DNA of 64,000 nt from Phascolarctobacterium sp. (GTDB taxonomy: Bacteria; Bacillota; Negativicutes; Acidaminococcales; Acidaminococcaceae): positions 89,045 through 153,044 of the forward strand of contig NZ_JAUNOQ010000006.1 of assembly GCF_030531065.1 (NCBI RefSeq), read 5' to 3'. The notes under the pieces were generated by a model, which was not told where the DNA came from, did not search any database, and saw only the letters and a program-made list of their open reading frames with translations. This document shows, in pieces, positions 59,848 through 61,176 of this stretch. Both the position numbers and the translations under genes were made by a program. The number at the start of each line of letters is the position of its first letter. Positions within the stretch are counted from its first letter, which is position 1.

Positions 59848-61176
59848 ATGAATAAGCTTTTCAAATTCTTAATGGTTACGACATTATGCTTTTTTACTCA
59901 AGTATCGATTGCGGCAAATATAAAAGATTATCCTCGTGTGGCAGTAATGAATTTTGGAAACAAAGCCATTACTAGCAGTGGCTTGCGAGAACATGATTTT
60001 AGCTCCGCTTCAGAGTACGCGATTTTTCAATTGTCTAATTGCGGCTGGTTTGATTTGGTTGATTATGAACAGTTAAGCACTATTGCTAAAATGCACAGCG
60101 TTAATATGTCCGGTTTAGTGGACCCTGCTACTGCTGTTGCTATGGGTAAGTTTGCCGGAGCAGAGTTTATGGTTATTGGCAATGTAACAGGTTTAACTAC
60201 GAAAGAGAATGTTTTTGGCTATCAGCATGGCGGGAAGGGAGGATTAGCTAACGCCCAGCATGTTGTTACAGCTAATGTTGCCGTGCGGATTGTGGATATT
60301 GAAACAGGGCGCATTGTGGCGGCTGGATTAGGAAAAGGCAGTTCTACCAGCACACATACAGAATTAAGCTTTAGAAAATATCGTAATAGAAAAATTGAAA
60401 CGGAAGACATTTCAGACACGATAACTACTGACGTTATTGACGAATATACTAAAAACAGAAAAACGAGCAATAGCAGTTCTGATTCTAGAAAAGTCGACGA
60501 AAAATATAATACTAAGAAAGATGTTTCTGCTTCTGCGAGCGTAACTGAAAACGCAAATGAAAGCAGTACGCAGGAAAATGGAACGAACAGCAGCACTTCG
60601 GTAAGAGATGAAGTTACGACGAGTAAAGGGCAAACGGTTATTTCTGAAAATACTAGCGGTAAAGTTTCCAACAGCGAATTGATGGATATGGGAGGAGAAC
60701 AATCTGATTTAAAGCTGACACCGTATACGGAAGAAAATACGTCTTCTAATAGTAAAAATGATACGTTGCAGAACGACATAACTTCTGTAAATGAAACTAC
60801 TAAAACCGATTCGAAAAACACGTCTTCGACCAATGTAAAATCAAAAGATTATTCTAGTGTAACTAGCGAGAGTGTCAATAATGTAGACGAAAGTGAATTT
60901 GTTGATTCTATGGAAAGTTCTCGAAATAGCTCGGAGGATATCGACGAGACCATAAATCAAGCTAATAATCAAAACCGCGTACAGTCTACTAATAAAAGCA
61001 TTTATTATGAACGCGAAACTGAGGATTATGTGGTTACTATCGGTACGGTAGAAGTATCTGATATTCAGGTAAGGAACGCTATAAGTAAAGCTGTTCGAGA
61101 TGCAATTTATGGCAATACCGGCATTATGACAGTGCTTAATGGCGGTAAAAAATTAAAAATAAAAACAGGATTTTAA
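59848..61176 (+). CDS. CsgG/HfaB-family protein with ~220-aa Ser/Thr/Asn/Glu-rich insertion
   Basis: RVAVMNFGN, WFDLVD, SGLVDPATAVAMGKFAGAEFMVIGNVT, ANVAVRIVDIETGRIVAAG. Confidence 0.72.
   Translation: MNKLFKFLMVTTLCFFTQVSIAANIKDYPRVAVMNFGNKAITSSGLREHDFSSASEYAIFQLSNCGWFDLVDYEQLSTIAKMHSVNMSGLVDPATAVAMGKFAGAEFMVIGNVTGLTTKENVFGYQHGGKGGLANAQHVVTANVAVRIVDIETGRIVAAGLGKGSSTSTHTELSFRKYRNRKIETEDISDTITTDVIDEYTKNRKTSNSSSDSRKVDEKYNTKKDVSASASVTENANESSTQENGTNSSTSVRDEVTTSKGQTVISENTSGKVSNSELMDMGGEQSDLKLTPYTEENTSSNSKNDTLQNDITSVNETTKTDSKNTSSTNVKSKDYSSVTSESVNNVDESEFVDSMESSRNSSEDIDETINQANNQNRVQSTNKSIYYERETEDYVVTIGTVEVSDIQVRNAISKAVRDAIYGNTGIMTVLNGGKKLKIKTGF

Follow-up and report, generated by a model that had tools for sequence, protein, structure and literature searches.

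The stretch of DNA analysed here, 64,000 nucleotides (nt) of a Phascolarctobacterium sp. genome (contig NZ_JAUNOQ010000006.1 of assembly GCF_030531065.1, positions 89,045 to 153,044, hereafter the window), ends with an operon of secreted proteins, one of which is a 442-aa protein of the CsgG/HfaB family, referred to below as the query. Its second predicted barrel hairpin carries an insertion of 219 residues (residues 176–394, RKYRNRK...ERETEDY, nt 60373–61029). The gene starts with the ATG at 59848, an in-frame TTG at 59833 being a possible alternative, and its stop codon occupies positions 61174–61176. The Pfam family CsgG (PF03783) is matched with 50.5 bits (cut-off 20.8, E = 2.2e-13), residues 28–179 lying on positions 9–165 of the 210-position profile, and the insertion interrupts the profile after position 165; there is also a weak Pfam match to LpoB. 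The AlphaFold2 (AF2) monomer model, built with 86 homologues, shows two long hairpins and a core with a predicted local distance difference test score (pLDDT) of 70–90. In a Foldseek search of PDB with this model the 25 best matches were all CsgG (E from 1e-5 to 2e-4, probability 1.0, template modelling score to the target 0.3–0.5), followed in rank by FlgT, CT253, LpoB, PelC and GNA1162, all of which share the core fold; HpaA was also matched. The features of the locus are collected in Table 1.

Table 1. Features of the CsgG-like operon and parts of the long-hairpin protein (window coordinates)
Feature	Position	Strand	Basis or remarks
Operon gene 1, 364-aa secreted protein	58733..59827	+	NCBIfam LipL46, E = 1.2e-4; weakly LPP20/FlgP/LipL46-like
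CsgG/HfaB-family protein gene (query), 442 aa	59848..61176	+	Open reading frame list, Pfam CsgG, Foldseek
Predicted signal peptide, residues 1–22	59848..59913	+	Site of signal-peptidase-I type, ...VSIA↓AN (A-x-A↓A-N)
Conserved core, residues 23–175	59914..60372	+	96% amino acid identity to the L005 orthologue
Conserved left-arm base, residues 176–210, RKYRNRKIETEDISDTITTDVIDEYTKNRK...	60373..60477	+	83% identity to L005; conserved in A1
Hypervariable left arm, residues 211–281	60478..60690	+	Distal identity 23%, dN 1.1; length kept in P0002 and P0003
Central turn GGEQSDLKLTP, residues 282–292	60691..60723	+	Site of dockerin or GGPAEG-type module in relatives
Hypervariable right arm, residues 293–358	60724..60921	+	Distal identity 23%, dN 1.1; length kept in P0002 and P0003
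Conserved right-arm base, residues 359–394, ...DETINQANNQNRVQSTNKSIYYERETEDY	60922..61029	+	69% identity to L005; conserved in A1
C-terminal strand, helix QVRNAISKAVRDAIYG and invariant tail ...KLKIKTGF, residues 395–442	61030..61173	+	100% identity to L005
Two secreted proteins, 275 and 265 aa	61191..62831	+	Same sizes at the same position in L002 and L003
CsgG-like paralogue 2, 278 aa, very short second hairpin	62841..63677	+	Pfam CsgG 19.4 bits (weak), LpoB 21.4 bits
CsgG-like paralogue 3, start (223 aa in full)	63688..64000, continues past the window end	+	Full gene at L001 6733-7404

The residues around the predicted cleavage site of the signal peptide, A22, A23 and I25, are invariant in our alignments A1 and A2, while a lipobox cysteine is not conserved: in the alignments the single cysteine of the signal peptide (position 14) is missing in P0006, P0013 and other homologues. 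The query is therefore predicted to be a secreted protein and not a lipoprotein, unlike CsgG. Its core contains the loop FGNKAITSxGLRxHDFSSA and the first barrel hairpin, TM1 (approximately residues 117–142, nt 60196–60273), in the region of which AF2 places strands at residues 107–127 and 131–150. The loop between strand 1 and helix 1, probably the counterpart of the constriction loop of CsgG, is strongly conserved. The C-terminal helix corresponds to residues 405–421 in the AF2 model. The sequence K[TS]GF forms the C-terminal end of 108 of 120 homologues; in the query the tail ...GGKKLKIKTGF lies at 61138–61173, and its terminal phenylalanine is found in the same 108. This invariant ...KIKTGF end resembles the C-terminal signal of outer-membrane beta-barrel proteins, a signal absent from CsgG.

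The insertion is bounded by ...GKGSSTSTHTELSF on the N-terminal side and by VVTIGTVEV on the C-terminal side. It consists of serine (18.3%), threonine (13.2%), asparagine (11.4%), glutamate (10.5%), aspartate (8.7%) and lysine (7.8%) to a large extent, and contains one proline, one phenylalanine, five glycines and no tryptophan, with a net charge of -16. The central GGEQSDLKLTP separates a left arm of 106 residues from a right arm of 102, and the sole proline of the insertion and two of its five glycines fall in this central turn. The original prediction, made from the letters of the window, had described here a proline-poor segment rich in these six residues, divided into halves of similar length, as well as a short equivalent hairpin in the neighbouring paralogue (which reads ...GSDTQKQVNVGFIKIGSDK...), and the reading frames and composition bear it out in every detail. 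An origin of the symmetry from a repeat or a DNA hairpin was ruled out, as the insertion contains neither tandem nor inverted DNA repeats.

The same prediction had placed the insertion at a barrel hairpin, and three lines of evidence agree with this. The Pfam profile is interrupted at the position where the second hairpin would follow; a profile of short family members (alignment A4), searched against PDB, aligns to residues 61–175 of CsgG, i.e., to the helix, the preceding TM1 hairpin and the next strand; and in the short orthologues of rumen Selenomonadaceae (254–274 aa) the insertion site is occupied by a plain hairpin, about 45 aa long. The insertion is thus located, as judged from these alignments, at the tip of the second barrel hairpin (TM2 of CsgG), a placement with which the AF2 topology and the Foldseek results agree. 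Only the A4 profile reached CsgG in this way; PDB sequence searches with the full-length protein, or with a profile of the full-length alignment A2, were unproductive. In the CsgG structure (PDB 4UV3) the tip of the TM2 hairpin is directed out of the cell. By analogy, we infer that the insertion faces outwards and is exposed at the cell surface; the suggestion that the hairpin might span the periplasm conflicts with the topology of CsgG.

A search of 5.8 billion proteins yielded 296 homologues. In the species-level genome scan the hosts were Phascolarctobacterium, Schwartzia, Anaerovibrio (including the cultured A. slackiae), Quinella and Selenomonadaceae, all of them gut and rumen Negativicutes, and the closest named locus (66% identity) belongs to a Phascolarctobacterium metagenome-assembled genome. 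The distribution of the gene is patchy, with matches in 8 of the 81 genomes and 5 of the 21 genera of the family sample, half of the eight being long forms. Between GLGKGSSTS and IGTxEVSDxQVRNAISKAVRD the homologues have anything from 49 aa (L014), or about 45 in the short Selenomonadaceae forms, to approximately 390–400 aa. The core, by contrast, is nearly invariant, being 96–100% identical to that of the L005 orthologue despite saturated synonymous sites (proportion of synonymous differences, pS, 0.77–0.87).

Many of the long relatives harbor a dockerin (PF00404) in the middle of the insertion, at residues 283–338 in P0006 (Pfam Dockerin_1) and 334–389 in P0039. Forms of about 600 aa, such as P0097 of P. 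succinatutens, annotated as 'dockerin type I domain-containing protein', have two dockerins, and in a clade of 560–570 aa proteins a conserved GGPAEG...W module, some 38 aa long, takes the place of the dockerin. When aligned in A1, P0004 and P0006 have their dockerin precisely at the central turn of the query, between GGEQSDLK and LTP, so the query is a module-less version in which both arms are retained. A Pfam scan found no dockerin in the query or anywhere in its genome. In genomes G001 and G002 (loci L006 and L007) the only dockerins are those inside the CsgG-like protein, and a scan of four genomes with long forms, including two that bear the dockerin in this gene, gave no Pfam cohesin; this suggests that the partner of the dockerin, if there is any, is non-canonical or comes from another organism. 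In A. slackiae the gene directly following the long-hairpin gene (L013 4832-6421) encodes a 529-aa secreted protein with a long low-complexity region rich in Asn and Asp, a dockerin and a C-terminal unknown domain, i.e., dockerins recur across different proteins of the operon.

In the relatives with a central module this module could be used as a marker, dividing the insertion into a part L, from the N-terminal flank to the module, and a part R, from the module to the C-terminal flank. The two parts change in length together. Among the forms with a single dockerin the (L, R) values are (115, 108–114), (111, 112), (97, 112) and (167, 160); among those with two dockerins, (123–124, 137–138), (119, 136–138) and (78, 93); and among those with the GGPAEG module, (164, 143), (168, 147), (152, 131) and (166, 163). 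In phylogenetically independent contrasts, computed on the conserved-core tree through the origin, L and R are correlated with r = 0.92, and the 31 non-zero contrasts give a Spearman coefficient of 0.62 (p = 2e-4). Pairwise comparisons show where the residues were gained or lost. P0055 has 12 residues more than P0107 at heights 62–73 of the left arm and 12 at heights 63–74 of the right one, and differs from P0066, P0076 and P0062 by 4 residues at heights of about 142–153 on the left and about 138–146 on the right; both pairs of indels are robust to four scoring schemes. P0066 and P0107 differ by 4 residues at heights 60–63 of both arms, the totals being 16 and 16. Larger differences are matched as well, 45 vs 44 residues between P0025 and P0051 and 52 vs 50 between P0006 and P0039, with 52 vs 48 also among the paired changes, and the 87-residue difference between P0010 and P0013 is exactly central. 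The clade of the query keeps its arm lengths: in the query, P0002 and P0003, with about 45% identity across the insertion, small indels compensate each other within an arm. Paired symmetric indels in both halves, which the original prediction had named as support for a hairpin, are therefore found in the relatives, with an unpaired exception considered below.

Equal length changes at equal heights are directly explained by antiparallel pairing of the arms, and we know of no reason why two free linkers should change by equal lengths at equal distances from their base. The arms are thus probably paired in an antiparallel manner, i.e., form a hairpin stalk. The AF2 model of the query contains one continuous two-stranded ladder in which strands 156–203, 211–234 and 246–259 are set against strands 312–325, 337–360 and 366–399 in the register i+j ~571, with the turn at GGEQSD; pLDDT is 54–63 at the arm bases (approximately 55–63 at the left one) and 58–79 in the strand 366–399. 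As read by eye, this register brings the basic RKYRNRK opposite the acidic ERETED, and the near-confinement of proline and glycine to the central turn also supports a hairpin.

The query belongs to an operon that covers window positions 58733–64000 and continues in L001 6733-8866. Its core gene order, conserved in the Phascolarctobacterium-type loci L002 and L003, is as follows: the LPP20/FlgP/LipL46-like protein, the long-hairpin CsgG, two proteins of unknown family, and the CsgG paralogues 2 and 3. A promoter-like site (58552–58580) precedes the first gene, the product of which also matches PDB 9hmf_C, 'Lipoprotein, putative' (E = 0.003), and the position of which is conserved in L002, L003 and L013. 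The 275-aa and 265-aa proteins have no sequence match in Pfam, NCBIfam or PDB. Paralogue 3 matches Pfam CsgG with E = 2.5e-14 over profile positions 8–200 of 210. The first-hairpin region of paralogue 2, about 50 residues long, is rich in Gly, Ala, Leu and Met (NLGTGNWLDNKIANIAQGANTAMSVMGASGAANLLGPVGMLASN), and it could be the real membrane-embedded element of a mixed ring. The three paralogues are the only CsgG-family genes in the 2.37-Mb genome; they always occur together in the operon, with differently elaborated hairpins, of which only one is long. Such a set of three different paralogues in each operon suggests that the ring may be mixed, in which case the long hairpins would not be neighbours. 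Downstream, the query genome contains an SH3 plus M23 peptidase, and the other loci autotransporters or other genes; no Pfam curli match was obtained among the operon neighbours. The G+C content of the operon (58500–64000) is 33–43%, compared with 50–59% in the flanking housekeeping genes (55250–56000; pheT, lactate/malate dehydrogenase-like), and this drop, along with the presence of the gene in only 8 of the 81 genomes of the family sample, suggests an accessory, possibly transferred island. Immediately upstream of the operon there are an AAA_14/DUF4143 ATPase gene (56650–57978) and a divergently oriented gene of an HTH_3 (Cro/C1-type) regulator (58147–58485).

We consider an elongated paired hairpin stalk, its degree of order left unspecified, to be the best explanation of the insertion, and one that is slightly likelier to be right than wrong. 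The query would then be a secreted, non-lipidated ring subunit of the CsgG family in a gut Negativicute, whose TM2 hairpin is prolonged at its outward tip by two polar arms of about 105 residues, antiparallel and held in register. The first 35 or so residues of each arm would be conserved and structured, while in the remaining part the sequence would be free and the length, the polar and proline-poor composition and the left-right symmetry constrained. The tip of the stalk would bear one or two dockerins or a small module in relatives and the bare turn GGEQSDLKLTP in the query. Projecting from the outer membrane through the lipopolysaccharide or a surface layer, such a stalk might provide a variable surface structure or hold a tip module, mounted on a ring that the conserved six-gene operon would build.

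A number of observations weigh against the paired stalk, and most of them speak for an unpaired, disordered and hypervariable surface loop, which could be a polymer brush or a tether, possibly glycosylated and evolving rapidly under pressure from phages or the immune system, and whose symmetry would not come from pairing. The composition of the insertion predicts disorder, the mean hydropathy of 0.35 being on the disordered side of the charge-hydropathy boundary (0.44). The pLDDT is below 50 at residues 233–337 of the query and, in a second and even less confident AF2 model, over almost the whole length of either arm of P0055, which comes from the clade whose arms align best; such values usually mark disorder. 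The distal arms are only 23% identical to those of L005, with a non-synonymous rate (dN) of 1.1 and a dN/dS of about 0.8, which is almost neutral, although with saturated synonymous sites dN/dS is usable solely for contrasting the core with the arms. No consistent period of 2 or 3.6 emerged when hydropathy, charge and Ser/Thr were scanned in 22 homologues, and no period-2 signal in particular (mean z -0.7 for hydropathy and -0.4 for charge). Cross-strand complementarity of charge and hydrophobicity, scored between the left arm and the reversed right arm and compared with whole-arm shuffles, block shuffles and a parallel control, was null in the query (z ~0.2) and weak overall, its mean being driven by two outliers, P0010 and P0039. 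The arms of P0039 contain helix-like amphipathic stretches, EQTLRDIESSMRLELDQMAANYRK (~270–300) and MTALSAEAAMRQRAMNA (~420–440), at similar heights, and this protein has the top pairing score (z = 4.5), so the manner of arm pairing may differ between clades. Some inserts would fit a regular hairpin poorly, such as those of P0068 (28 Gly and 7 Pro), P0102 (14 Pro) and P0144 (net charge -51), and the wide range of insert lengths is likewise what a free loop would allow. In P0016 a large indel is unpaired, the left arm only being shorter (-18/0), and A. slackiae departs from the offset of its class. The beta structure that the original prediction had proposed for the insertion finds no support in the low distal pLDDT, the missing period 2, the lack of complementarity in the query, the composition or the near-neutral distal evolution. 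However, a free loop leaves unexplained both the equal gains and losses at equal heights and the maintenance of arm lengths at about 45% identity where there is no tip module, and the near-absence of proline from 219 residues would be unusual for bacterial linkers. We regard the disordered loop as a real possibility, but on the unlikely side.

The original prediction had gone further and suggested that the hairpins could form a tube. As a purely geometric estimate, two paired strands of about 105 residues each would give a ribbon approximately 35 nm long, and in a tilted barrel the same arms would extend over 25–30 nm. We know of no precedent for an isolated two-stranded ribbon of some 35 nm, which argues for lateral association into a tube: in a homo-oligomer 8–10 hairpins would join in a closed, water-filled, all-polar beta-tube of 16–20 strands, about 25–30 nm long, extending the CsgG channel outwards. 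All the evidence for arm pairing applies to such a tube as well; a lone ribbon whose strands are about 100 residues long would probably be unstable, and lateral association would be its natural stabilizer; and beta-stems that are rich in Ser/Thr and built by oligomers do exist in pore-forming toxins. Since a period-2 pattern is not required of a ribbon or tube that has water on either face, the tube would also explain its absence, although this absence weakens the reading of the arms as beta structure. On the other hand, with three different CsgG paralogues, only one of them long-hairpin, the ring may be mixed and the long hairpins not adjacent; from the 36 strands of a nonameric CsgG-type barrel the structure would have to taper to 18; folded dockerins at every tip, as well as the Gly/Pro-rich and hyper-acidic variants, fit a closed tube poorly; and the confidence of the model in this region is very low. 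Altogether, the tube seems to us improbable. Still less probable, in our opinion, and indeed hardly to be expected, is that the protein is a periplasmic or peripheral ring or scaffold subunit, not a channel, similar to FlgT, PelC or LpoB, with its hairpin in the periplasm or reaching the peptidoglycan. The Foldseek matches to these proteins and to GNA1162 and HpaA, the lack of a lipobox, the LPP20/FlgP-like first gene and the downstream SH3 plus M23 peptidase would fit such a role. So would the hairpins themselves, in which no clear hydrophobic belt can be discerned by eye, a point that counts against the barrel-borne stalk too. Yet CsgG is the best match in both fold and sequence, with both hairpins present, dockerins are typically extracellular, and the invariant C-terminus resembles the end signal of outer-membrane proteins.

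Among known systems, the closest is CsgG, the curli secretion channel of Escherichia coli (PDB 4UV3, 4Q79, 6L7A), which shares with the query the PF03783 domain, the alpha/beta core and two beta-hairpins per subunit, and to which the best fold matches belong. The query differs in lacking a lipobox, in a second hairpin that is 219 aa longer and in the invariant ...KIKTGF tail; its operon contains no csgA, csgB, csgE or csgF but two further CsgG paralogues. FlgT, PelC, LpoB and GNA1162 resemble it in the core fold, and LPP20/FlgP-like partners occur in the operon described here, but these proteins do not have the two long hairpins and score below CsgG. The beta-stems of pore-forming toxins, such as lysenin and the anthrax protective antigen (~10 nm), are similar by analogy, with one long polar Ser/Thr-rich hairpin per subunit; their strands, however, are of 20–35 residues and have an alternating membrane part, whereas here each arm has about 105 residues and no alternation, and there is no homology. 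Dockerin-bearing surface and cellulosomal proteins (PF00404) are related through the orthologues P0006, P0039 and P0097, which carry true dockerins, but inside the hairpin tip and not terminally, and the query has none. As for the hypervariable loops of outer-membrane proteins, they too combine a conserved scaffold with an outward loop whose length and sequence differ greatly from strain to strain, but are far shorter, and matched halves are not known there. In searches of the literature on CsgG in Negativicutes or Veillonella, on Phascolarctobacterium dockerins and on extended barrels we found no description of a CsgG relative in which a hairpin is extended or a dockerin embedded.

If the arms were merely a disordered loop, the protein would be a curiosity of surface variation. 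If they are paired, a barrel hairpin with about 100 extra residues per strand would represent a new architectural principle for outer-membrane proteins, and this in the family of CsgG, which features in textbooks as a secretion channel and is widely used as a nanopore. The conservation of length and symmetry in place of sequence would be rare as well. Should the closed tube prove true, it would be several times longer than any known beta-barrel and would carry a CsgG-type channel across the surface layers of a diderm Firmicute; in the relatives its tip modules (dockerins) would be exchangeable, and its sequence would be under hardly any constraint, backbone pairing and length being all that mattered. 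The diderm Firmicutes to whose envelope the family belongs are abundant in the gut and rumen (Phascolarctobacterium, Anaerovibrio, Selenomonadaceae), but this envelope has received little study, and the extreme variability of the arms suggests that in these bacteria the family forms a surface structure met by phages or by the host.

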